From: a virus
Lineage: Duplodnaviria > Caudoviricetes
DNA length: 43,410 bases
Reading direction: 5' to 3' (one strand)
Virus record (IMG/VR): IMGVR_UViG_3300025848_000064
Coordinates: 1-43,410 of that record
The notes below the pieces were generated by a model. That model was not told the origin of the DNA. It ran no database searches and saw only the letters and a program-made list of their open reading frames with translations. Every line of letters starts with the position of its first letter. Within the stretch, counting starts at the first letter, position 1. Shown here piece after piece: positions 3,161-25,536 of this stretch. The translations under genes were made by a program, and so were the position numbers.

Positions 3161-3309
3161 CTGCGCTCGCCCGCGCACCTGCATCAGAACAGCCTCGCGC
3201 CCAAGCCTCAACGCTTTCAGCGTTGGGGCCTATTTGCTCAAAACGCCACAGCACGCTCGCGTGAGTCAAGGCGAATCGAGGCAAGGCAGCCGGTTGTCAC
3301 GGCAAATCC

Positions 3310-3398
3310 AAAAAAATCTATCCCTACGGGATACGGTGCCAATCGGCGACGATTCGGCGATGCCAGCCATTGACAAGCGGCCCGGCATCGGCGACCAT
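3310..3398 (+). promoter_or_regulatory. Early host-RNAP promoter 1
   Basis: A7 tract, TATCCC-TAC-GGGATA (3319-3333), TTGACA 3370-3375, 17 bp, GACCAT 3393-3398. Confidence 0.6.
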
Positions 3399-3471
3399 TG
3401 AAAGCGCCGAGGCAACGTCGCCAAACGGCACTTATCACCCGATGCCAACGTAGTTGGCAGGAGCAGCGAGT

Positions 3472-4749
3472 ATGCGTATCACCCGATGGAATGCCCGCAT
3501 GACATGGACGGAGCGAGCCGATGTCGGCACCGACAGCAACCGGATGATCCTTCGGATCTACGACGTTCCCGGCGCCGCCAAGTCGGAGACTTGCTTCGTC
3601 TACCTTGCCGAAGGCAACCCCACGTTCATCAAGGGCGATGGCAGCCCCATGCGTTGGGACCTTCGGTCCAAGATTGCCCCGCTGTTTGACGGGCTTGCCA
3701 TGTTCCAGTCCCGGTTCGCCACGGCCGGAGCCTATGAGGCTCCCCGTTCCCCGATCGCCGGGATGGTTTCGGCTGTCCCGACGGCGGCTCCTGCGGTCTC
3801 CGGAGGAGACCTGGCATCTGTGCTTGGCGGTGCGATGGCGTCCTCGGTCATGCCCCTTGTGGAGGCGAAGATCGAGGAGGCGATGCAGAGCATCGAAGAC
3901 CGTGTCAAGGACGTTGTCGCCGATGCCGCGAAGCGGCCCGTTGTCATCACGCTGCCTTCCGTTCCGGAAGTGAGGCTTGACGGCACCGAACACTCCCGGT
4001 TCAAGGACATGGTCATCCTGACCATGACACAGCCGTGCAAGGACAGGAACGTGCTCCTGTACGGTGAGCGTGGCTCCGGCAAGTCAACCGCTGCGAAGCA
4101 GTTCGCCGCGAAGATGGGTCTCCCCTTCGGGGCAGTTTCGTTCTCCGCAGGGGCATCGGAGTCGCTCTTCACGGGGCGCTTCCTGCCCTCCGAAGGAGGG
4201 GCGTTCAAGTGGCGGCCGACGCCGTTCACCCGGCTCTACACCGAAGGTGGCGTCTTCTGCCTTGACGAACTCGACAAGGCGGACCCGCAGGTGGCTACGG
4301 CCCTGAACATGGCGCTTGCCAACGGCGAGATCGTCACCACCGAAGGTGAGGTCCTGAAGCGCCACGAGCAGTTCATCGCGGTTGGCGGAGCCAATTCGCT
4401 CAAGTTCTCGAAGGTGTATGCGGCGGCACAGCCGCAGGACGGCTCCCTGCTTGACCGCTTCGTCAAGGTCGAATGGAACCTGTGCCCCACGTTGCTTCGC
4501 AACGTCCTCAACTCCATCTGCGGCATTGACAAGGCGAATCGGATCCTCCGGATCCGTGATGCCGTGAACGCTGTCCTGAAGGACAAGCGTTTCAGCGAGT
4601 GGGACGTCGGCATGAGGCTGGCGCAGCGCATGGCATATGTGGCTGCGGCGGACATGAACCCGGTCGATCTCGTGCTCCGTGATGAGGTGAAGGCGATGGC
4701 GAGCCAGTACGAGGGGGACGTACTGGCCGCCGCGGCGGGCTGTCGGTGA
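3472..4749 (+). CDS. MoxR/CobS/CbbQ-type AAA+ ATPase
   Basis: Walker A LLYGERGSGKS, Walker B VFCLDELDKADP, sensor ANS, LLDRF arginine finger; ATG 3472 follows GGAGCAGCGAGT. Confidence 0.88.
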   Translation: MRITRWNARMTWTERADVGTDSNRMILRIYDVPGAAKSETCFVYLAEGNPTFIKGDGSPMRWDLRSKIAPLFDGLAMFQSRFATAGAYEAPRSPIAGMVSAVPTAAPAVSGGDLASVLGGAMASSVMPLVEAKIEEAMQSIEDRVKDVVADAAKRPVVITLPSVPEVRLDGTEHSRFKDMVILTMTQPCKDRNVLLYGERGSGKSTAAKQFAAKMGLPFGAVSFSAGASESLFTGRFLPSEGGAFKWRPTPFTRLYTEGGVFCLDELDKADPQVATALNMALANGEIVTTEGEVLKRHEQFIAVGGANSLKFSKVYAAAQPQDGSLLDRFVKVEWNLCPTLLRNVLNSICGIDKANRILRIRDAVNAVLKDKRFSEWDVGMRLAQRMAYVAAADMNPVDLVLRDEVKAMASQYEGDVLAAAAGCR

Positions 4750-4833
4750 AAAAACTCCCCTACGGGGAGGAAACTCCCCGGCGGGGATTCTTGGCGGAAA
4801 CATGTTGACATTCGGCAGCGGTTGCCGGATGAT
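4749..4833 (+). promoter_or_regulatory. Early host-RNAP promoter 2
   Basis: A6 tract, CTCCCC-TAC-GGGGAG (4755-4769), TTGACA 4805-4810, 17 bp, GATGAT 4828-4833. Confidence 0.7.
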
Positions 4834-4871
4834 GGGATGCGAAAGGCGGCGAGTGCCGCAGAAAGGCGAGT

Positions 4872-5750
4872 ATGCGCTACACGACTGACAAGCACGGAGA
4901 CACGACCGTCTACACGTTTGCGAACCTTGCCGATGCCGTTGCAACGGCGGTCGAAGCGGAGCGCGACGGCGTCACGGGTCCCAACGCCAATGCGGCCAAG
5001 CGGCTGCGTGACAGGCTCGACGGCTACCGTGGCGCCACGGAGTGGGCCGACGGCATGGGATGGGACGATGCCGTGGCGTCGATTGCCGCTCCTCCGGAGT
5101 GGAAGCGCGAGGCCCTGTCCCGTTTCGACTGCGGCCAGTACGGCGCCCCGCTTGCCCCGGCTCCCCGCCGCAAGGTTGTCAAGCGGCTCGACGATGGCGA
5201 TGCCATCGACGCCGTGCGCTACGCCACCGAGTTCACGGTGGAGGGCGTGTGGAGCAAGCGGATGCGGGCCCGTGTGGTGCGTCCGGTGGTCCGTGTGCTC
5301 CTGAACAGCGGTGCGTTGGGGCATGTCACGGCGACGGAGATGGCCCGGAACGCGGCGGCAAGCCTCGCGTTCATCCGGATCGCCGAGGACTCCGGCTACG
5401 CCGTCGAAGCGGACTGGGGTTCGCACTTCCAAGTCGGCTGCTCCGGAACGTATGCCATCCGGGTCCGTGTCAAGGAGGTCGGCGAGGCGATCGACTGGAC
5501 CACGCTTGCGGCCCTGTGCGTCGGCGGCGGCGTCCACCGCAGCGTGGGGTGGATGCTGCGGAACGTGTGCCTTCCCGTGTCCCACGGCGACTACGGGGCG
5601 AGCAAGCAGCAGTGGTACCGCGACGGCGAGTACGACGCCGTGTCCAAGGGGTGGATGAACAGCGACGGGGAGGCGCAGCGGTGGCTTGCGGATGCCTGCG
5701 ACCGCCTGTCCCTGCTTGCCAACGCAGGCCGCGAAGCGGTGGCGGCGTGA
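4872..5750 (+). CDS. vWA-like partner of the AAA+ ATPase (CobT-like), degenerate MIDAS
   Basis: DDGDAIDA, VRVLLNSGALGHVTA, AEDSGYAVE, VRVKEVGEAID pattern; adjacent to a MoxR-type ATPase. Confidence 0.6.
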   Translation: MRYTTDKHGDTTVYTFANLADAVATAVEAERDGVTGPNANAAKRLRDRLDGYRGATEWADGMGWDDAVASIAAPPEWKREALSRFDCGQYGAPLAPAPRRKVVKRLDDGDAIDAVRYATEFTVEGVWSKRMRARVVRPVVRVLLNSGALGHVTATEMARNAAASLAFIRIAEDSGYAVEADWGSHFQVGCSGTYAIRVRVKEVGEAIDWTTLAALCVGGGVHRSVGWMLRNVCLPVSHGDYGASKQQWYRDGEYDAVSKGWMNSDGEAQRWLADACDRLSLLANAGREAVAA

Positions 5751-5752
5751 CA

Positions 5753-5799
5753 CGGGTCGGGTGCCCCGTCCGAGGGTGACGGGCGGGGCGCCCATCCCG
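5753..5799 (+). promoter_or_regulatory. Long GC hairpin with internal loops; possible RNase III-type processing site or terminator
   Basis: GGGTGCCCC..GTC / GAC..GGGGCGCCC pairing in an intergenic position. Confidence 0.4.
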
Positions 5800-5826
5800 C
5801 TTCATGCGGAGAAAGCGAGTGAGCAC

Positions 5827-5967
5827 ATGGATGACAAGACGCAAGCGGAGGCTGACATGGACGCGAACGACCCGATTCTTGCCGCCATCGACGCGGAACT
5901 GGAGTACCTCGCAAGCATGATCGCATACCTCGAACGCCGCGACGGCGTGACGAAGGGAGGCGATTGA
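5827..5967 (+). CDS. Small acidic hypothetical protein (46 aa)
   Basis: MDDKTQAEADMDANDPILAAIDAELEYL...; preceded by GAGAAAGCGAGT. Confidence 0.55.
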   Translation: MDDKTQAEADMDANDPILAAIDAELEYLASMIAYLERRDGVTKGGD

Positions 5968-5968
5968 C

Positions 5969-6253
5969 ATGAAGACTCCCGAGTACCTGGCTCACGCAGC
6001 CCGTGACCGCGTTGCCAATGCCTGCCGGTTCCTGCGCTGTCATGCAGGCACCAGCGAGGAGGCGTGGCGCGAGTACTGGGGCGCCGGTGAGGCGCTTGCC
6101 TACGTCATGCGGTGCGAGATCGTTCCCGCCGACGAGTGCATGGCCCTGCTTGAAGGCATGGACGCGGCGCTTGACGAGGGCCTGAACAGGATGCGGCGGA
6201 AAAAAAGTTCCCCTACGGGGAAGGCGACAGACTTTCGGAAAAATGCCGCATGA
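5969..6253 (+). CDS. Hypothetical early protein
   Basis: SD GGGAGG upstream; its 3' end overlaps promoter 3. Confidence 0.6.
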   Translation: MKTPEYLAHAARDRVANACRFLRCHAGTSEEAWREYWGAGEALAYVMRCEIVPADECMALLEGMDAALDEGLNRMRRKKSSPTGKATDFRKNAA

Positions 6254-6286
6254 GGGGTTGACGAACGGCGACGAATGCCCGATGAT
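6200..6286 (+). promoter_or_regulatory. Early host-RNAP promoter 3
   Basis: A7 tract, TTCCCC-TAC-GGGGAA (6208-6222), TTGACG 6258-6263, 17 bp, GATGAT 6281-6286. Confidence 0.7.
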
Positions 6287-6331
6287 GGTTGCACACAAGC
6301 GGCGAAGTGCCGCAGAAAGCGAGTAGCGAGT

Positions 6332-6559
6332 ATGAGAGCGAGTTCATGCATGGTGAGCGATGCGCTTCAGCGCATGAGGGAGGTGCACGACAGCGGGCAT
6401 TGGCGTGTCCATACGGACGCCACGCTCGTGGGAATGGTCGCGTTCATGGAGAGCGTGGACCCGTCCATGCTCCTGCCCGACGAGCGTGACTTCGTGACCG
6501 GGTTCATGGCCGTGCTGTGTGAGCATCAGGACGAGCAGGCGAAGGGAGGTGCAGCGTGA
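6332..6559 (+). CDS. Hypothetical early protein
   Basis: ATG 6332 after GCGAGTAGCGAGT (alternative ATG 6350); ends KGGAA. Confidence 0.6.
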   Translation: MRASSCMVSDALQRMREVHDSGHWRVHTDATLVGMVAFMESVDPSMLLPDERDFVTGFMAVLCEHQDEQAKGGAA

Positions 6560-6744
6560 ACACAAGCAACAGGCCGGGCCCCGAGGCTGACGTACTGGAC
6601 CAAGCCGCCTACTGGGGCTGCTACATGGAGCAGATCGGTACGCCGTCGGGCTACACGCTGACAACACACATCATGCCGCTTGTGCAGCGGCTTGCCGCAG
6701 AGGTCGCATCACATCGCAACAGCAAGAACGGAGGTGCAGCGTGA
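6556..6744 (+). CDS. Hypothetical early protein
   Basis: SD GGGAGGT, GTGA start/stop overlap. Confidence 0.6.
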   Translation: MNTSNRPGPEADVLDQAAYWGCYMEQIGTPSGYTLTTHIMPLVQRLAAEVASHRNSKNGGAA

Positions 6745-6968
6745 GGATCGAAGCAGACATTGACATGGACGAACTGGCGGAGGCCGTCGCAGGCCACATC
6801 GACGTTTCGGACTTGGCGCAGCAGGTGGCGGACAACATGGACGCCGAGCAGGTGGCTGCGGAAGTTCCGTTGGACCGGATTGTCGATGCCGTCATCGAAG
6901 CGATGGACATGGACGAACTGGCCCGTGCCCTGCTGCGGGCTATGGCCGAGCAGAAGGGAGGTGCGTGA
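6741..6968 (+). CDS. Very acidic helical-repeat protein (75 aa)
   Basis: 19 D/E versus 5 K/R; DMDELA motif twice; SD GGAGGT. Confidence 0.7.
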   Translation: MRIEADIDMDELAEAVAGHIDVSDLAQQVADNMDAEQVAAEVPLDRIVDAVIEAMDMDELARALLRAMAEQKGGA

Positions 6969-7192
6969 TGCCACGAGTGGTCATGTACTTGGAGGTGCCC
7001 GAGGGCAAGAACGCGGGAGGCGAAACGAGGTTCGACCTGCTGTGCGACACGTTGCAGGAACTGGTCGAGTCCGACGGGCTCGACGGCTACTTCACGCTGA
7101 CGTTCAACGGCGAGGCGTGGACGCAGGACCGGGGCGAACTTGCGGCGCTTGCGGACAAGACCGAGGCGGCGCAGAAGGAGGTGGGAGCGTGA
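6965..7192 (+). CDS. Hypothetical early protein
   Basis: SD GGGAGGT, coupled start. Confidence 0.65.
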   Translation: MMPRVVMYLEVPEGKNAGGETRFDLLCDTLQELVESDGLDGYFTLTFNGEAWTQDRGELAALADKTEAAQKEVGA

Positions 7193-7539
7193 GCAGGCCC
7201 ATTGACAAGGTCATCGGCACGATGGACTGGGACGAGTTCGCTCGTCGCTACCAGCCCGTGCCCGGCGGCGAGTTCTACGAGGTGTGCACGAGCCGCGCCG
7301 TCGGTCCGGAGGACAGCCTGTGCTACGGACGCAACGAGTTCCCCCGTGGCGTTCCCGAGGAGCGCGTGTGGGAGGTCCTTGTCACGCCCGACGATCAGAC
7401 CGGAAGCACGATGCTCATCTACCCGTACCAATGCAGGTGGGCGATCAACGCGGTGGAGAGCGGGTGCGACCGCATCGGGTTCATGCTCACGGAGCAGCCG
7501 CACGGGTTCGCAAACATCGAAGTGGAGGATCGGCCATGA
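7189..7539 (+). CDS. Hypothetical early protein
   Basis: GTG 7189 overlaps the upstream TGA; SD AAGGAGGT. Confidence 0.6.
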   Translation: MSRPIDKVIGTMDWDEFARRYQPVPGGEFYEVCTSRAVGPEDSLCYGRNEFPRGVPEERVWEVLVTPDDQTGSTMLIYPYQCRWAINAVESGCDRIGFMLTEQPHGFANIEVEDRP

Positions 7540-7778
7540 CATGGGCAGTAAACGTTGAGTTCGACACGGGCGACGAGCCAATCTATTTCCCGGTCCGGAC
7601 ATACCTGTTCGCCACCGAGAAGGCGGCGCGTGAGTTCGCCGCTCACGCTGATCTTGCGGAGGGCACGACGAACGTGTCGGTGTGCGACGTTGTGCCGGTG
7701 CGGACCGGGCTCAAATCAGCCAAGCGCGATCTTGCGGCATGGATCAAGGAGCAACGTAACGACGAGGAGGAAGAATGA
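7536..7778 (+). CDS. Hypothetical early protein
   Basis: ATGA overlap; SD GGAGG. Confidence 0.65.
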   Translation: MTWAVNVEFDTGDEPIYFPVRTYLFATEKAAREFAAHADLAEGTTNVSVCDVVPVRTGLKSAKRDLAAWIKEQRNDEEEE

Positions 7779-7942
7779 GAAAGATCAAGGGCATGGACAT
7801 CGTCATCGTCGTCAAGTTCCCCGGCATCACGGACTTGGACGGGCAGGACGCAGAGAACGCGGTCTGCGAGGTCACGGAGGCCATGATGGGCACGGGGCTT
7901 GACTGGACCATCGAAGAAATCTTCGGAAGCGAGGAGGCATGA
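7775..7942 (+). CDS. Small acidic hypothetical protein (55 aa, absent from the ORF track)
   Basis: MRKIKGMDIVIVVKFPGITDLDGQDAENAVCEVTEAMMGTGLDWTIEEIFGSEEA*; ATGA overlap; SD GAGGAGG. Confidence 0.65.
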   Translation: MRKIKGMDIVIVVKFPGITDLDGQDAENAVCEVTEAMMGTGLDWTIEEIFGSEEA

Positions 7943-7943
7943 C

Positions 7944-8210
7944 ATGGTGAGCATGTACGACGCGATCCGCACCGGCGTGGTCCCGCCCCACGGCATGGGC
8001 ACGGTGGTGCAGAGCAAGACGTTCCGCACGGTGAACGTGTGGAAGTACGAGCAGAAGGACAAGCCCACGATGTGGTGGGTGCTTGAGTCGATTGACAACG
8101 GCCGGATCGAGAACGTGTACCCGTGTGGGTCGCTCGACGAGGCCCAGGAGTGCTACGCAGGACTGGTGAACCCCAACAAGGAAGCGAGTGAACTGAATGG
8201 AACGGTCTAA
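7944..8210 (+). CDS. Hypothetical early protein
   Basis: SD GAGGAGG, ATG 7944. Confidence 0.65.
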   Translation: MVSMYDAIRTGVVPPHGMGTVVQSKTFRTVNVWKYEQKDKPTMWWVLESIDNGRIENVYPCGSLDEAQECYAGLVNPNKEASELNGTV

Positions 8211-8697
8211 CGTGTATCTGCTGCTGCCTGCGTCCGGCGAACCCAAGTTCGGGACGATCGACAACCCCGACTGGCAGGAGTTCAACCGGGCGATCAAGGC
8301 GGACACGGGAGCGGTTGTGCGTTCCCGTGGGCTGACGGAGGCGCTTGGCGACACGGGTCGCCGCATGTTCGCGGTGGAGACCGTCGATCTGTGGGTCGAT
8401 GACGAGGCGCTGCTGAAGGAGGAGCCCGTGCCCAACGTCCTTGCCTCGTGTTTCGCGGGGCAGATGATCCACGGCGACGCTCTTGTCATGCTCGGCACCG
8501 GGCAGGGCGAGTCCGTGGGTCTGCCCACGGAACTGGAGTTCTGGCTCATCGGCGTGATCGGGGAGATCGAGCGCACCGGCAAGCGTGACGAGATTTACGC
8601 CGTCGTCAAGGCGGAGCATGAGGCGTTCATGAAGGAGAACCCTTCGGGGTTCAAGTTCGTTGCGATGGACATCACCAAGGAAGGGGGTGCGGCGTGA
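8197..8697 (+). CDS. DUF3846-like phage protein
   Basis: VDLWVDDEALLK...PNVLAS...IHGDALV pattern; preceded by GAAGCGAGT. Confidence 0.55.
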   Translation: MERSNVYLLLPASGEPKFGTIDNPDWQEFNRAIKADTGAVVRSRGLTEALGDTGRRMFAVETVDLWVDDEALLKEEPVPNVLASCFAGQMIHGDALVMLGTGQGESVGLPTELEFWLIGVIGEIERTGKRDEIYAVVKAEHEAFMKENPSGFKFVAMDITKEGGAA

Positions 8698-9299
8698 TCC
8701 CGTACAGCCAAGAGGCGCACAGGTGGTTCAAGAGCCTTGAGCGCCACCGCGATGCCGCGATGACGGACGATCCCCCGTCACGCTCGACATGGATGCGTCT
8801 CACCCTCACGGGCGGGAAGGGGTTCACCATCCCGCTCGTGCACGGCTCGGAGGATGCGACCGTGGCGTCCATGCACTACGTCCTCTCGCTGCCGCGGATG
8901 TGGGAGCGGCTTGGGTGCAAGGAGATGACGATCCTTCAGGCGCTTGAGTGCAAGAACCGTGCGCTCATCATGGGCGACGTTGCCGCGTCGATCAGGTACT
9001 TGCAGCAGCACGGGCTGCTCGAAGAGAAGTTCGAGGGCGTCGTCAAGGTGCGGAACCCGTACAACTTCATGAGCCTCGAACTGACCAGGCGTCTCGAAGG
9101 CCTTGACAAGACCGTTCCCGTGGTCTCCGACCGTGCACCCAAGCGGTGGCACTCGGCCGACTGCGAGGACGAGTACGACGTCCGTGCCTTCAACTGCCCG
9201 GACAGGGGTGCCGCCGTGGGGATCGCCATCCACAACGACATCCCCGACGTTTCCCCGTTCGACCTCGCCGGGAGCATCGTCCTTGGCAAGGTCGGCTAA
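8694..9299 (+). CDS. Hypothetical protein (201 aa)
   Basis: Coupled GTG/ATC start region, genome-typical codon bias. Confidence 0.65.
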   Translation: MIPYSQEAHRWFKSLERHRDAAMTDDPPSRSTWMRLTLTGGKGFTIPLVHGSEDATVASMHYVLSLPRMWERLGCKEMTILQALECKNRALIMGDVAASIRYLQQHGLLEEKFEGVVKVRNPYNFMSLELTRRLEGLDKTVPVVSDRAPKRWHSADCEDEYDVRAFNCPDRGAAVGIAIHNDIPDVSPFDLAGSIVLGKVG

Positions 9300-9320
9300 A
9301 GTGCAGGCCTACTCGCTGCT

Positions 9321-9368
9321 CTCCGGCAGGGTGCCCGTGGCCCTGCCGGGGGGCTTTCTCTTTTCCCT
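9321..9368 (+). terminator. Intrinsic terminator ending the early accessory operon
   Basis: CCGGCAGGG (9323-9331) / CCCTGCCGG (9341-9349) stem followed by CTTTCTCTTTTCCCTT. Confidence 0.75.
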
Positions 9369-9393
9369 TACGGTTGACAGAAGGCACTAATCC

Positions 9394-9615
9394 ATGAAAG
9401 ACAAGGTTGTCGATGGGGTTGTTCAGTACCTGCGTTCCCGCGCCCGTGCGGAGTCGGCTGCGTCCGACCTCCACCCGGATGCGTCGATGCTTGCCAAGGC
9501 GGCGGACCTGATCGACCGCATGGCGACGCAGTTGGCGGAGGCCAAGGAACGCAACGTCCACCTTCAGCGTTCCCTCGGGGAGTACGAGGCGCGGGAGATC
9601 GGGGGCGAGGCGTGA
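9394..9615 (+). CDS. Hypothetical coiled-coil protein
   Basis: Open frame, AADLIDRMATQLAEAKER coil; coupled to the next gene. Confidence 0.65.
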   Translation: MKDKVVDGVVQYLRSRARAESAASDLHPDASMLAKAADLIDRMATQLAEAKERNVHLQRSLGEYEAREIGGEA

Positions 9616-9950
9616 ACAAGCGCAAACTCACGGACGGGCAGGTGACGGAGATCCGGGAACTAGCCAAGACCGGCATGAAGCGGGCGACGATCGCCGTCAG
9701 GTACGCGGTCAGCCCCCAGTTGGTGTCGTGGGTGCTGAAGAACGGGTACGAGACCAAGGCGGTTGACGACCGTGTCAGGCGCACGGACGACGACTGTGCG
9801 ACATGGACGGAGATTGCCCGTCTCTACAACGAGCGGGCCGTGGGTGACAGGATCACCCCGGCGCAGGCGAAGAGCGTCCACGACCGTGCCTTGCGAAAGA
9901 TCCGGCTGCTGTGCCAGGACCACGGATTGACACGGGGTGATTTTGAATGA
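9612..9950 (+). CDS. Double helix-turn-helix DNA-binding protein
   Basis: KLTDGQVTEIR...RATIAVRYAVSPQLVSWV HTH plus a sigma region-4-like TWTEIA...KSVHDRALRKIR. Confidence 0.7.
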   Translation: MNKRKLTDGQVTEIRELAKTGMKRATIAVRYAVSPQLVSWVLKNGYETKAVDDRVRRTDDDCATWTEIARLYNERAVGDRITPAQAKSVHDRALRKIRLLCQDHGLTRGDFE

Positions 9951-9997
9951 ACGCGGTCCCTGGCTACCATGTGTTGACAAACGGGGGTAGTTGCTTG

Positions 9998-10026
9998 TTG
10001 CCGTTCCCGTTGGCTTGGCGTAAAGT
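9998..10026 (+). promoter_or_regulatory. Sigma70-type promoter for the marR-like/integrase pair
   Basis: TTGCCG-17 bp-TAAAGT, then SD AAGGAG and ATG 10049. Confidence 0.5.
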
Positions 10027-10048
10027 GTGCAAAGCAAAGGAGCAACGC

Positions 10049-10396
10049 ATGGCTAGCCAGTCTCTCGACACGTTCGTCAATCAAGTCGCCTACCTTCGGG
10101 ACGCGGTGAACCCGGACATGACGGGCCTTGCGATGGCGATGTTCGCCTACATCGCAAGCCACCCGTTCAACGAGGGTGTTCCCATGTCGAGGGTCGTTGA
10201 CAAGTTCGGGCTGTCGGCCAGCACCGCCAGCCGCAACATCTACCTCCTGTCGAGCGGCTTGGTGCGCCCGACGGAGGGCAGGAAGGGGTTCGGGCTGATC
10301 CGCACCGACACGGCTCCGACGGACCGGCGGGCGTTGCAGGTCTACCTCACCCCCAAGGGACAGCAGGTCGCAAAGGGACTCATGCAGGTGAAGTGA
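10049..10396 (+). CDS. MarR-like winged-helix regulator, probable repressor
   Basis: GLSASTASRNI, GLI...DRRALQVYLTPKG wing motif; directly before the integrase as in temperate T7-like marine podoviruses. Confidence 0.85.
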   Translation: MASQSLDTFVNQVAYLRDAVNPDMTGLAMAMFAYIASHPFNEGVPMSRVVDKFGLSASTASRNIYLLSSGLVRPTEGRKGFGLIRTDTAPTDRRALQVYLTPKGQQVAKGLMQVK

Positions 10397-10397
10397 C

Positions 10398-11348
10398 ATG
10401 AACATCAGGAAGCGGAAGAACTCGTGGCAGGTTGACGGGATGATGGACGGGAAGCGCATCCGCAGGCAGTTCAGGAGCGCGGCGGAAGCGGAGGCGTTCG
10501 TGAAGGCGGGGAGCCGGGAGGAGGCGCGTGAGCGCACCGTCGGGGAGCTGTATTCCCGCGTCTATGCCTCGCGGTGGGCGACGCTCAAGTCCGGGGTGAT
10601 GGCCGCTCTGGGCCAGCGGATCGTCAACAGGCTGGGGGCCGACACGCCGGTGTCCAGGATCGACGCCGGGAGGATCCATGACATGGTCTCCGGGCTGCGC
10701 TCGGCGGGCTACTCGAACTCGACGATCAACCGCTGGGTGTGCGGGCTGAACGTCATGCTGCGCCACGCGGCCGTCGAGGGCTGGATCGACAAGCGGCCGG
10801 AGGTGCGTTCCCTGAAGGAGCCGTCGGGCCGGAACAGGTTCCTGTCCAAGGACGAGGAGCAGGAGATCATCGAGATCATCGGGCGCCAGGATCCCAGGCT
10901 CTCGAAGCTTGTCATGGTCCTCGTTGACACCGGCCTGCGGCTGTCGGAGGCCATCGGGCTGGAGTGGCGGGACATCACCGGCGACCAGTTGACCGTGCAC
11001 GAGACGAAGAACGGATCGTCCCGGTCGGTTCCCCTGACGAGGCGGGCGAGGGAAGTACTTGCTTCACTCGACCGGTCGCACGATCGCCCGTTCTCCTTCA
11101 CGGACAGGCACCACGCCTCACGGGCCTTCTCCCGTGCCCGTGAGCGGTCGTCCATGCGGGGGGACACGGAGGTGGTCATGCACACCCTCCGGCACACCTG
11201 CGCCTCGCGGATGATCCAGAGGGGCGTTCCCGTGGCCGTGGTGTCGGCGTGGCTGGGCCACCGCAGCTTGGCCGTGACCATGCGCTACGCCCACCTGCGG
11301 CCGGACCACCTCCGTGACTACGTCCATGTCTTGGAGCGGTCCGCCTGA
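10398..11348 (+). CDS. int: Tyrosine recombinase / phage integrase
   Basis: TGLRLSE (R), TKNG (K), HTLRHT (HxxR), LGH, MRYAH (Y). Confidence 0.96.
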   Translation: MNIRKRKNSWQVDGMMDGKRIRRQFRSAAEAEAFVKAGSREEARERTVGELYSRVYASRWATLKSGVMAALGQRIVNRLGADTPVSRIDAGRIHDMVSGLRSAGYSNSTINRWVCGLNVMLRHAAVEGWIDKRPEVRSLKEPSGRNRFLSKDEEQEIIEIIGRQDPRLSKLVMVLVDTGLRLSEAIGLEWRDITGDQLTVHETKNGSSRSVPLTRRAREVLASLDRSHDRPFSFTDRHHASRAFSRARERSSMRGDTEVVMHTLRHTCASRMIQRGVPVAVVSAWLGHRSLAVTMRYAHLRPDHLRDYVHVLERSA

Positions 11349-11581
11349 CGATCGACAGGTTATCTGGACTTGTACGCTGGAGCGACGCTGCCCACACTTG
11401 TGAGGAAGTCTCGCCCTTTAGATCCATCGACAGAGGTTTCATTACGCACAGCCAGGGGCGTGTGACAAGGCCTACCGTACCACCCCACGAGAGTGACTAT
11501 CTTGTGCGTATCGTGTGACAGAACGTGTGACAGAATGTGACAGAACTTCAACGAGTAGCGAATAATACTGACCTTGACAAA

Positions 11582-11622
11582 GCGGGCGTGGCGAAATTGG
11601 CAGACGCACGAGATTTAGGTTC
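11582..11622 (+). mobile_element. attP core: 5' half of tRNA-Leu(TAG), not a full tRNA
   Basis: GCGGGCG TGGCGAAATTGGCAGACGC A CGAGA TTTAGGT TC gives acceptor 5' strand, Leu-type D arm and TAG anticodon loop, then similarity stops; downstream of int. Confidence 0.85.
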
Positions 11623-11779
11623 CTGCACCAACTATCGCCATTAGGCGGAAGACCGCCACAAGACAACTGTTGACAGCCTATCTCGTGGGGGATGTCACAT
11701 GCGTTGTCACAGCCGGATTTCGGGGAGACGCCATCCTCAAGATTTCTTCCAAATCCTGGAACTTTACTTTCCGTCCATG

Positions 11780-11798
11780 TTCGCCGGTTGGCTATAAT
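11780..11798 (+). promoter_or_regulatory. Putative -10 (TATAAT 11793-11798) for the RNAP gene, overlapped by a degenerate operator
   Basis: Perfect TATAAT in a GC-rich genome; TTCGCC-GGTT-GGCTAT. Confidence 0.5.
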
Positions 11799-11917
11799 CC
11801 TCTAAAGAGAAGAGAAGGGTGACAAGGCAGAAGGAAAGAAACCGCTGAAAGCGGGGTCATTCAGAAGACCTTGGCAACCTTCTGTCACACCTGAAGACAA
11901 CCTAAAGGGAGGGACGG

Positions 11918-14335
11918 GTGACTCTGACCCAGCGGCAGCTCGACAAGGAGATGGTTGAGTCCGGCAAGTCTCGCTTCTGGCGACGGACGGAGAAGGCCAA
12001 GAAGGGGGACCGGGAATCGGACACCGACCACGGCACCCGCCTCCTGAACGCGGCCGTCTACCCCGTTGCCGAGGCACTCCGGGAGGAGTTCAAGACCATC
12101 GGCAGGCCGGGCTTCAACAACACCGGCGTCAAGGGGCTCCTGGATTCCGGCATCGACCCGGAGGTCCTGGCGCTCCTGGCCCTCCAGTCCGTCATCGACG
12201 GGATCAGCAAGAAGCAGCGGGCCAGCCGTGTCATGTCGATCATCGGCAGGCGGATCCAGACCGAGGTCCTGCTGGAGCGGCTTGCCGGTGACAAGCCCTT
12301 CGTCCTGAAGACGGTGGCCCGGTGGACGTCCGACCCGCAGTCTGACCTGCGCCGCCGGGCGACGATCAAGAAGATCGTCTCGAACATGAACGAGGAGTGT
12401 GCGGAGCTGGTCCGCAGCGTCACCATCGACGACGCGCTCCTCCTCCGGATGGGCTTCGTCCTCGTCGAACTGATCCGCCGCCACACCGGCCTGATCGAGG
12501 TCCGCAACGTCTCGACCGCGGCCAAGCGCATGACAACCTGGATCGTTCCCACCCAGGAGACGGTGGACTGGATCCGCAACTACGGCTCGTCCTGCGAGTT
12601 CCTCCGCCCCGTCAAGCTGCCGATGGTGGTGCCCCCGTACAACTGGTCCAGCCCGACGGTCGGCGGGTACGCCAACGACCTCGGCGAGGACCTGATCCGT
12701 TCCGAGTCCGGCACCCAGATGGAGTGCGCGACGAAGGAGCAGATGCCGACGGTGTACCGCGTCATCAACGCGATGCAGCGGGTTCCCCTGCGCGTCAACA
12801 CGCAGGTGCTGGAGGTCGTTGACACGCTCTACCGCAACGGCGTCGTCTTCGGCGACCTGCCTCCCATCGAGGACATCCGGGTTCCCCCGAGGCCCAACAT
12901 CCCGTCGAACGACCCGGCCATCAAGCTCTGGCGCCGGGACTGTCACAAGGTCCACGAGGCCAACCGGACCAACGCCGGGCGCCGCATCAACGTGGCCCAG
13001 ACCCTGGCTCTGGCTGAAAGATATTGTGGTGCGAATTTCTTTCTGCCGGTGTGCATGGACTTCCGTGGCCGCGTCTATCCGCAGACGACCTATCTCTCGT
13101 ACCAGGCCGGTGACATCGGCAAGGGCCTGACGTCGTTCGGCATCGGCAAGCCGGTCAAGGTCCATTCCCCCGAGTGGACGGCGCTCCTGCTGGGCGGGGC
13201 AGGGCACATGGGCGTCAAGGGCAGCATCAACCAGCGGATTGCCGAGGCCGACAAGTTCATCCGCTCCGGTGCCGTCACCGCCGTCGTCTCCGATCCCTAC
13301 CAGCACAAGTCGCTGTGGATCGACCGTGACGAGCCGGTGCAGTTCCTGTCGTGGTGCCATGACATCGCCTCCGTCATGGGCGGCGGCAACAGCCACCACC
13401 CCGTCTGGATGGACGGCTCGTGCAACGGGCTCCAGATCATCAGCCTCCTGCTCCGCGACGAGGTCGGCGGGATGCTCACCAACTGCTGCCCGGCAACCCT
13501 CGACACGGCGCCCATCGACATCTATACGGCCGTTGCCAACCGGACCCAGGAACTGCTCTGCCAGGAGCGGGACCCGAAGACCCAGGAGTGGGCCAGGGAG
13601 TGGGTCCGCTACGGGATTGACAGGGCGGCCGTCAAGCGGTGCGTCATGATCGTCCCGTACAACGGCTCGATCCACGCTGGCGTTACCTACATCCGTGACT
13701 GGTACCAGGAGAAGTACCAGAAGGTCGGGGGTCCCTGGAAGGAGCCGACGTACCCGATCGGCTACCTAGCCACCGTGGTGTGGCGGGCCATCGGAGAGAC
13801 CATCCGCAAGGGGACGGAGTTCATGAAGTGGATGCGGGAGGTGCAGAAGGTCTGCAATTCCGCCGGTGTCCAGCCCTCGTGGGTCACCCCGTCGGGCTTC
13901 CTCGTCCACCAGACCTACCACCAGTACGACGCCTGCAACGTGAAGACCACGCTCGGGCGGACGGTCCGGATGTTCCAGCTCCGCAAGGCCAGCAAGCGGG
14001 TCGCCACCCGCAAGCACCTCAACGCGCTGGCCCCCAACTTCATCCACTCCCTCGACGCGGCGGCGGAGATCCTTACGTTCGACGCCCTGCTCTCCGCGAA
14101 GATCGAGAACTTCCTGGGTCAGCACGACTCCTACGGATGCCTCGCGGCCGACACGCCTACCGTTTACCGCGTCATCCGCCGGACCTGGTCGTCGATGTTC
14201 GAGGACGACCTCTTGTCAATCTTCCGCAAGCATGTTCAGCACGAACTTCCGAAGGGCGTGGAACTCCCGCCGGTGCCCCCATACGGATCGCTCGTACCGG
14301 CGGACATCAACAATTCGCCGTACTTCTTTTCCTGA
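11918..14335 (+). CDS. T7-like single-subunit DNA-directed RNA polymerase
   Basis: DFRGRVY, motif A DGSCNGLQ, motif B RAAVKRCVMIVPY, PNFIHSLDAA, motif C HDSY, C-terminal YFFS. Confidence 0.97.
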   Translation: MTLTQRQLDKEMVESGKSRFWRRTEKAKKGDRESDTDHGTRLLNAAVYPVAEALREEFKTIGRPGFNNTGVKGLLDSGIDPEVLALLALQSVIDGISKKQRASRVMSIIGRRIQTEVLLERLAGDKPFVLKTVARWTSDPQSDLRRRATIKKIVSNMNEECAELVRSVTIDDALLLRMGFVLVELIRRHTGLIEVRNVSTAAKRMTTWIVPTQETVDWIRNYGSSCEFLRPVKLPMVVPPYNWSSPTVGGYANDLGEDLIRSESGTQMECATKEQMPTVYRVINAMQRVPLRVNTQVLEVVDTLYRNGVVFGDLPPIEDIRVPPRPNIPSNDPAIKLWRRDCHKVHEANRTNAGRRINVAQTLALAERYCGANFFLPVCMDFRGRVYPQTTYLSYQAGDIGKGLTSFGIGKPVKVHSPEWTALLLGGAGHMGVKGSINQRIAEADKFIRSGAVTAVVSDPYQHKSLWIDRDEPVQFLSWCHDIASVMGGGNSHHPVWMDGSCNGLQIISLLLRDEVGGMLTNCCPATLDTAPIDIYTAVANRTQELLCQERDPKTQEWAREWVRYGIDRAAVKRCVMIVPYNGSIHAGVTYIRDWYQEKYQKVGGPWKEPTYPIGYLATVVWRAIGETIRKGTEFMKWMREVQKVCNSAGVQPSWVTPSGFLVHQTYHQYDACNVKTTLGRTVRMFQLRKASKRVATRKHLNALAPNFIHSLDAAAEILTFDALLSAKIENFLGQHDSYGCLAADTPTVYRVIRRTWSSMFEDDLLSIFRKHVQHELPKGVELPPVPPYGSLVPADINNSPYFFS

Positions 14336-24113: not shown

Positions 24114-24208
24114 TGGAATCTTTCCTCGGCAACGTGTTCTTCGCCCTGCTGGTCGGCTGCTGCGGTTTCGCGGCGGCCTACTACCTGTGCAAGACCCGCC
24201 GAATCTGA
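24113..24208 (+). CDS. 31-aa single-TM peptide (absent from the ORF track)
   Basis: MESFLGNVFFALLVGCCGFAAAYYLCKTRRI*; TAATG coupling; AAGGA upstream. Confidence 0.6.
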   Translation: MESFLGNVFFALLVGCCGFAAAYYLCKTRRI

Positions 24209-24378
24209 ATCACATCACCCCCCGCTGGCTGGGGTGAACGTCCGTCTTGGAAACAGTCCGAGACCGACTCGCGGCCCGATGCGTCGGACACCCGTGGAGG
24301 AGGATCGCTGACTCGCCCGCAGAACGGCTTGTCAAGCCAGCGCGTTTCTTACACACACTCACATAGGAGTCCATTCAA

Positions 24379-25476: not shown

Positions 25477-25536
25477 TCCTTACCGTCCTGGGGCCTAACC
25501 GCCCCAGGGCGGATTCACTCGCTCCTTTCTGCCTCG

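Follow-up and report, generated by a model that had tools for sequence, protein, structure and literature searches.

A candidate small RNA gene at the end of the early operon of a temperate T7-like phage and its complementarity to early translation starts

Early region and tagged translation starts

The window analysed here, i.e., the whole stretch of 43,410 nucleotides, is a 43.4-kb record of an uncultured virus with T7 gene order. The terminase is followed by an early block (3472-9299), a transcriptional regulator and a tyrosine integrase (10049-11348; phrog_9665, E 1e-18, and phrog_1, E 1e-61), a single-subunit RNA polymerase gene at 11918, and the replication and virion genes. All features described below are located on the plus strand unless indicated otherwise. 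The first early gene (3472-4749) codes for a MoxR-type AAA+ ATPase (Pfam AAA_5, E 1e-19) which has 13 full-length homologues with 54-94% identity. The last early gene (8694-9299) has no assigned function, as Pfam and PHROG searches gave no match; its stop codon overlaps a predicted -10 box. Judged by position and analogy, the regulator is predicted to be MarR-like.

A predicted attP core of 41 nt (11582-11622) is located 3' of the integrase gene and is identical to the 5' part of tRNA-Leu(TAG). It has four exact matches in the genome collection, three in Phycisphaerales/Phycisphaeraceae and one in a genome assigned to Planctomycetota by its title, which makes Phycisphaerales bacteria the likely host group. 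A single-subunit RNA polymerase, T7 gene order, a regulator with an integrase and an att site within a tRNA gene place the phage among the temperate T7-like phages. No prophage of its family was found in 401 genomes of the predicted host order: there were no matches to the ATPase or to the capsid protein, and the seven distant polymerase matches (L201-L207, one in each of seven genomes) are T7-type enzymes only 27-30% identical to that of the phage.

Three other lineages were available for comparison: phage B (contigs L003 and L167, overlapping by 123 nt), phage C (L008 and L168, counted as one lineage) and phage D (L005). Nine near-identical copies (L002, L004, L006, L090, L129, L145, L161, L166, and L198) were excluded from every count. 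Scans with the ATPase, integrase, regulator and polymerase, and with a 14-row ATPase alignment, returned these lineages and distant hits, with no further relatives; a genome scan with the regulator found no relative either, and all GenBank phages are less than 60% identical.

Three strong early promoters are predicted: P1 (3370-3398, TTGACA-17-GACCAT), P2 (4805-4833, TTGACA-17-GATGAT) and P3 (6258-6286, TTGACG-17-GATGAT). P2 and P3 come from a promoter scan and from comparison with the relatives. P1 was not listed by the scan and was read from the sequence; both of its hexamer positions are mostly retained in phages B (L003) and D. Each early promoter is preceded by an A-tract with a hairpin (3308-3333, 4750-4772, and 6201-6222) which reads as a minus-strand terminator; the stems covary and the loops differ among relatives. 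A 12-nt direct repeat (3433-3444 and 3477-3488), partially retained in relatives, lies on both sides of the ribosome site of the first gene. A long conserved hairpin with invariant loop bases GGGTGAC is located at 5750-5813 and is retained in L003 and L168. Its loop is complementary to TCACCC in the first leader, over 6-7 nt only.

The start regions of the early genes share a short tag. Among 46 gene starts picked by eye, with the tag scored in the interval -20..+3, GCGAGT is found at 5 of 14 early starts and at none of the 32 others (Fisher p 0.0015). Together with the overlapping AGCGAG, it is the commonest hexamer of the early start regions. The tagged starts are 3472, 4872, 5827, 6332, and 8197, so the seed for further leaders that the initial annotation had described does have counterparts there.

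The first target (3461-3472), in which complementarity extends beyond the tag, is invariant in the window, phage B (L003) and phage D. The second is GGCGAGT (4865-4871) in the P2 leader, with AAGCGAGT in L003. The third is AGCGAGT at 5814-5820, immediately behind the conserved hairpin and invariant in the window, L003 and L168. The P3 leader carries tandem copies of AGCGAGT (6318-6332), of which the first is retained in L003 and L168 and the second (6326) is not conserved. The fifth target, AGCGAGT at 8183-8189, is retained in L167 and L168 in changed surroundings. In the relatives, tags were found at 5 of 15 scored starts of phage B and 3 of 13 of phage C (L168, a contig that does not extend to the first two tagged starts), all at positions equivalent to those in the window.

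Four of the five tagged genes open their own leader: three are located behind the predicted promoters P1-P3 and one behind the conserved hairpin element. The fifth, 8197, overlaps its neighbour in the window; its counterpart in phage C has a gap of about 110 nt in place of the overlap. The nine untagged early genes start a few bases from the upstream stop codon, most of them with GGAG-type sites. One uncoupled early gene of phage B lacks the tag (L003:7878).

A terminator hairpin with a free complementary seed

The initial annotation had pointed to a 12-nt complementarity between the two ends of the early operon, and this is accurate: TACTCGCTGCTC (9310-9321) exactly matches the reverse complement of GAGCAGCGAGTA (3461-3472), the latter ending with the A of the ATPase ATG and lying 5.8 kb away. 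The companion site before 6332 (6321-6332) differs by one base, which would form a G-U pair, again as described. The placement of the 12-mer just 5' of the terminator stem is right for its first eight nucleotides, while 9318-9321 (GCTC) forms the base of the 15-bp stem, so only 7-8 nt of the 12-mer are single-stranded.

A bare 12-nt match is common and needs context, as the genome has 191 inverted matches of at least 12 nt that are more than 200 nt apart. A 12-mer antisense to any of the 46 start regions occurs in 22 of 43,388 plus-strand windows of 22 nt, which by arithmetic corresponds to two sites, 9310-9321 being one of them. Of 86,790 windows of 15 nt on both strands, 510 (0.6%) contain a sequence complementary to one or other of the two hexamers most common at early starts, and the spacer between the last early stop codon and the stem is one of the 510; it should be kept in mind that the seed-based statistics were designed after the motif had been noticed. 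The functional unit appears to be the 7-nt seed common to five targets rather than the 12-mer.

The predicted RNA covers about 52 nt (9311-9362) if it starts at the A of the seed, and consists of a 5' seed, a 15-bp hairpin and a pyrimidine tail. The region folds into a single hairpin (-32.6 kcal/mol, z -4.36). The seed, (T)ACTCGCT at 9310-9317, is the complement of AGCGAGT(A) and is unpaired and invariant in 4/4 sequences. The hairpin (9318-9354) is an intrinsic terminator that ends the early operon and would also end the RNA. All 60 of 60 stem cells are paired across the alignment of four sequences, with one pair changed on both sides and two on one side; stem covariation by itself is not significant (44/500 shuffles). 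Two invariant U-G pairs are found at the stem base. The tail, TTTCTCTT (9355-9362), together with the last stem base reads CUUUCU in its complementary part and matches AGAAAG ahead of several tags. As both seed and tail are complementary, one target could be held around the hairpin. The tail arm is seen in some of the predicted dimers and contributes 0-4.7 kcal/mol; host terminators in the host-group genomes end in similar tails. Rfam has no match to the predicted RNA at gathering score, and a search of 3200-11950 up to E 5 returned nothing except one unrelated hit at E 4. A short unpaired seed directed at several translation starts and an intrinsic terminator with conserved pairing are features of trans-acting, terminator-ended bacterial small RNAs.

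Genome-wide ranking of targets, proposed with the initial annotation as a check, came out in its favour. When A9311-9362 was used as the RNA and accessibility was taken into account, ranks 1, 2, 5, 6, and 7 among the 46 starts went to the five tagged ones, and ranks 3 and 4 to two untagged starts. The best four of 2,890 plus-strand windows by predicted binding belong to the P3 and P1 leaders, and the tandem tag of the P3 leader is the best predicted site of the genome. The two best targets are predicted at -11 to -13 kcal/mol and targets 2, 3, and 5 at -7 to -8 kcal/mol, the latter being weaker than the two untagged starts. Only 1 of 150 tested seed permutations (of 420) scores as well as the real seed. 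When pairing of the seed was forbidden, most of the predicted binding energy was lost in 13 of 14 own-RNA tests and less in the remaining one.

The same predictions bear on a reversed direction of action, in which untranslated early leaders would pair with the 5' arm of the nascent terminator and cause read-through into the HTH, regulator and integrase genes. The complement of the first leader does span 4-5 nt of the stem base, where the two invariant U-G pairs are located. However, most tags reach the unpaired seed only, and 10 bp of the stem are left intact in the predicted duplex. In addition, the first leader lies 5.8 kb upstream, and a separate TANNNT box (10021) precedes the regulator-integrase pair, so we find such antitermination very improbable.

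Further copies of ACTCGC are present elsewhere in the window. The 3'UTR of the capsid gene (25511-25530) contains an unpaired linker between two strong hairpins with a second ACTCGC followed by TCCTTTCT, which looks like the 3' end of host 16S rRNA carrying an insert. Predicted binding of this linker is -20.5 kcal/mol to the 8197 start and -14.9 kcal/mol to the 5827 start. A motif of this type arose in 3 of 200 simulated genomes, and the region is outside the coverage of the relatives. On these model energies, it is possible that 25511-25530 serves as a late shut-off element. Two more copies are found in the pre-capsid region (24200-24337 and the end of L199), which by appearance is nearly identical in phage B, vs 87% identity overall.

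Conservation, predicted transcription start and host context

TACTCGCTGCTCTCCGG is invariant in the window, in phage B and in both phage C sequences, while the flanking spacers differ on both sides. This invariant stretch of 17 nt (4/4 sequences, three lineages) adjoins a gene that is only 66-75% identical (455/609 and 410/624 identical positions in the last early gene DNA). At the other end of the operon, the pairing region of the first leader is invariant in the window and phages B and D, and the hairpin upstream of it has compensatory changes in phage B. The RNA is represented in three lineages only, and the RNA together with the first leader in two only (the window and phage B).

Covariation in related phages had been suggested as a check of the pairing. 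None is seen at the seed/tag pairs, as seed and tags never vary in the relatives found, and it is the complementarity itself that is conserved. A seed serving five sites can be expected to be hard to change. In phage C, the tail is CUUUCC and the P3 leader has GGAAAG, which looks like one matched change and amounts to about 1 kcal/mol in swap scores. The other two targets of phage C did not change to match this tail, so we treat tail-target covariation as a lead only. A site at 11553 was set aside as it is not retained in L007 or L008.

Could the tag be a Shine-Dalgarno variant or a protein-binding site, AGAAAG(C)GAG, with the complement at the terminator a coincidence kept by descent? AGAAAG can pair with CUUUCU at the 3' tip of host 16S rRNA, and a crude count found GCGAGT in 6 of 340 host upstream regions vs 2.8 expected. 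The scan of viral contigs with the 14-mer gave 120 stretches, almost all unrelated by tblastn, and the scan with the 17-mer gave five, of which three have no match to 18 window proteins. Two records without matches to these 18 proteins, L150 (about 9000, minus strand) and L146 (about 5741, minus strand), have a hairpin, AGAAAGCGAGT and a nearby ATG once each, and L150 additionally has a promoter-like sequence in front. No counterpart of the RNA model was detected in the fetched stretches. Presence of AGAAAGCGAGT in these records keeps the reading as a mere ribosome-site variant alive. On the other hand, it leaves unexplained the eight unpaired invariant bases beside divergent spacers, the promoter box and the 0.6% window probability. 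Four host-group genomes show no enrichment of the tag ahead of an ATG (9 matches vs 17 in the control). Taken together, this makes such an origin of the tag quite improbable. A different form of the idea, an alternative Shine-Dalgarno sequence matching an altered 16S end, was rejected: all three complete host 16S genes end in the canonical GAUCACCUCCUUUCU.

The alternative offered by the initial annotation, a host signal made of ACTCGC and a hairpin and acting on both strands, received no support from tag counts, the 16S end, the RNA model or the 14-mer search in host-group genomes. In its general form, AGCGAGT would be an operator or a polymerase signal recognised on both strands. One inverted copy overlaps a predicted start point, three copies come after promoters, and ACTCGC is mildly over-represented in the same 340 host upstream regions (10 regions). 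However, the sense copies are fixed relative to start codons and two of them are far from predicted promoters, and the anti-SD of the host is canonical. A covariance model of the RNA found weak matches (E up to 0.05) in 14 of 61 host-group genomes. None of the eight best inspected contains an intact ACTCGC; they are mostly plain terminators, the best one being that of a flagellin-like gene, and in one a near-seed is present but a U-rich tail is missing. The model also found nothing in the fetched flanks of four of the T7-type polymerase genes of the host order. The 14-mer has no exact match in four hosts, and its one-mismatch matches (19) do not exceed the control (22). We therefore find a DNA-level or host signal hardly credible.

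A promoter for the RNA is predicted within the end of the last early gene. TAAAGT (9297-9302) overlaps the TAA stop codon, is located 8 nt before A9311 and would act as a -10-only host promoter. Equivalent boxes are TAGGAT in L167 (phage B, at the same distance) and TACCAT in L008/L168 (phage C). The latter is located 10 nt ahead of the A of the seed, after a TGA stop codon, which is outside the 5-9 nt peak described below, so the RNA of phage C would start earlier. TANNNT is rare on the plus strand of the phage (0.0007 per base), with six occurrences between 3400 and 9400 including the one at 9297. The box in front of the regulator gene at 10021 is identical, TAAAGT.

This spacing corresponds to a pattern in the host group. 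In 400 kb of one host-group genome, TANNNT is located 5-9 nt ahead of the ATG in 44 of 505 ORFs, with 0-3 ORFs per position elsewhere, and TTG is present at the -35 position in 3 of these 44. We read these boxes as putative -10-only promoters of leaderless genes. Leaderless genes are apparently common in the sampled Phycisphaerales genome (G004, L178-L197), where TANNNT is spaced 5-9 nt from the following ATG in about 9% of the ORFs sampled, mostly without a -35 element.

The suitably spaced TANNNT of the three lineages suggests a separately promoted RNA rather than a processed 3'UTR or pairing between the ends of one mRNA. Here the initial annotation stands in part: tag enrichment, target ranking and conservation all favour an antisense RNA acting on early starts, whereas the box in three lineages argues against the origin that it had proposed. 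With its own promoter, there would be no feedback from the operon's own transcript. The product is likely an RNA of about 52 nt starting at the seed or just before it.

An RNA processed out of the early mRNA at its 3' end, or that 3' end itself as part of the mRNA, could exert the same antisense action, this time as true negative feedback. The element does sit in the 3'UTR of the very operon that it targets and shares its terminator, as in the OppZ/CarZ type, and OppZ acts in this way on oppB (PMC7398697). In the window and in phage B, the TA of the box doubles as the stop codon, which partly accounts for the box in these two lineages, yet TAA or TAG ends just 7 of 47 window genes. Moreover, TANNNT is preserved as three different sequences, and in phage C it does not overlap the stop codon. 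In folds predicted with the upstream bases attached, part of the seed is paired. OppZ needs Hfq, and Hfq (PF17209) was not found in 4/4 candidate host genomes, which are possibly incomplete and belong to bacteria not proven to be the host, with a control that matched in 5/14. Thus we regard a 3'UTR origin as unlikely.

Proposed mode of action and known systems

The sequence evidence suggests that 9297-9362 is probably the gene of a separately promoted phage small RNA of about 52 nt which blocks early translation starts. Antisense control in one form or another is likely. Host RNA polymerase would transcribe the RNA from the weak -10-only promoter inside the stop codon of the last early gene, and transcription would end at the terminator of the early operon. 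In five early genes, the free 5' seed ACUCGCU would pair with the AGCGAGU tag, which lies between Shine-Dalgarno site and AUG, and thereby block ribosome loading at the lead cistrons. As Hfq was not found in the candidate hosts, a 7-nt seed would have to act without it. At the first gene, a duplex of 12-13 bp would form by continuing into the G-U-rich base of the stem, and in leaders containing AGAAAG the 3' tail could supply a second duplex arm. Since each untagged early gene begins only a few bases from the stop codon upstream of it, blocking the lead genes would silence the coupled genes as well. Rho polarity may spread the silencing; Rho_N was found in 3/4 candidate hosts.

Two purposes can be envisaged. 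The first is a timed shut-off of early proteins after infection. In T7, the early end of the genome enters the cell first. If the same holds here, the RNA gene, located 5.8 kb behind P1, would be reached later and the RNA would appear after its targets, shortening the early pulse. As the phage is temperate, the second purpose could be damping of the three strong early promoters P1-P3 in the prophage. The invariant seed across lineages would be compatible with a housekeeping shut-off and with shared immunity alike.

Antisense control of phage genes has long been known, which lowers the surprise; the CI RNA of P4 is the same kind of phage antisense RNA as C4 of P1/P7. C4 is, like the RNA proposed here, encoded away from its targets and occludes ribosome sites of the phage's own genes, and is part of lysogeny control (PMC5320573). 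It is about 77 nt long, has three stem-loops, is processed by RNase P and pairs via loops a' and b' with the antirepressor operon (PMC5320573). In contrast, the window RNA has one hairpin, a 5' seed and five target cistrons, and no Rfam match, so it is not a C4 RNA.

OppZ and CarZ of Vibrio cholerae, described as processed 3'UTR RNAs repressing their own operon, are comparable in arrangement (PMC7398697). In that account, as proposed here, the RNA comes from the 3' end of an operon, uses its 5' end for pairing at a translation start in that operon and shares the terminator; Rho can add polarity, a further likeness to the present proposal. A cleavage mutant excluded long-range pairing inside one mRNA for OppZ (PMC7398697). 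Unlike these RNAs, which are cut by RNase E and depend on Hfq, the window RNA has a predicted primary promoter and candidate hosts in which Hfq was not found. Besides, OppZ is reported to pair at one start (oppB), while the window RNA has five starts with one tag, in a phage.

VpdS, PreS, 24B_1, sar, OOP, aQ, and others are covered by a 2025 review, and none of the RNAs in its accessible part is described as acting against a shared tag on several early cistrons (PMC12197685). The temperate T7-like phage LUZ100 shares the layout of host-polymerase early promoters, a regulator with an integrase and then the phage RNA polymerase; MarR was proposed to repress the polymerase gene in such phages, and the paper, in its available part, names no small RNA against early-gene starts (PMC10134795). 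To that extent, the MarR model leaves unanswered how temperate T7-like phages silence early genes under strong host promoters (PMC10134795). The candidate described here is compact, consisting of one 52-nt RNA and five 7-nt tags. If real, it would represent an RNA-based regulator in a phage of a Planctomycete group whose candidate hosts yielded no Hfq. The literature searched (main texts and few subscription papers) contained no account of this RNA. The most fitting reading is a new family of phage small RNAs whose function, antisense control, is of a known kind.

The tag also resembles in its distribution the SAS repeats of Cluster K mycobacteriophages (13 nt, 11-19 copies, including the SD core), whose partner, RNA or protein, was left open in 2011 (PMC3203893). 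Both are phage-private asymmetric tags at starts of non-structural genes, mostly after larger intergenic gaps, and the single reverse SAS copy of Cluster K1 phages is a parallel to the antisense element in the window (PMC3203893). The window tag differs from SAS in sequence. The present proposal gives a way to test the SAS repeats. One may go further and speculate that a constitutive, Hfq-independent RNA of 52 nt silences the prophage early operon instead of a protein repressor, with both its ends clamping the private tag and blocking incoming relatives, that the capsid 3'UTR (25511-25530) provides the late shut-off, and that the same logic of tag and mirror explains SAS; we consider this extended scheme doubtful. 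In mycobacteriophage Anaya, 15 forward and one reverse SAS copies were counted in the 30.8 kb fetched. The reverse copy is found within the loop of a predicted hairpin (stretch L231:29845-29905, z -2.8). It comes after the last SAS-tagged gene, with a terminator-like hairpin and a TAGACT hexamer upstream, and on this fold the stretch may be regarded as a candidate antisense RNA for SAS.
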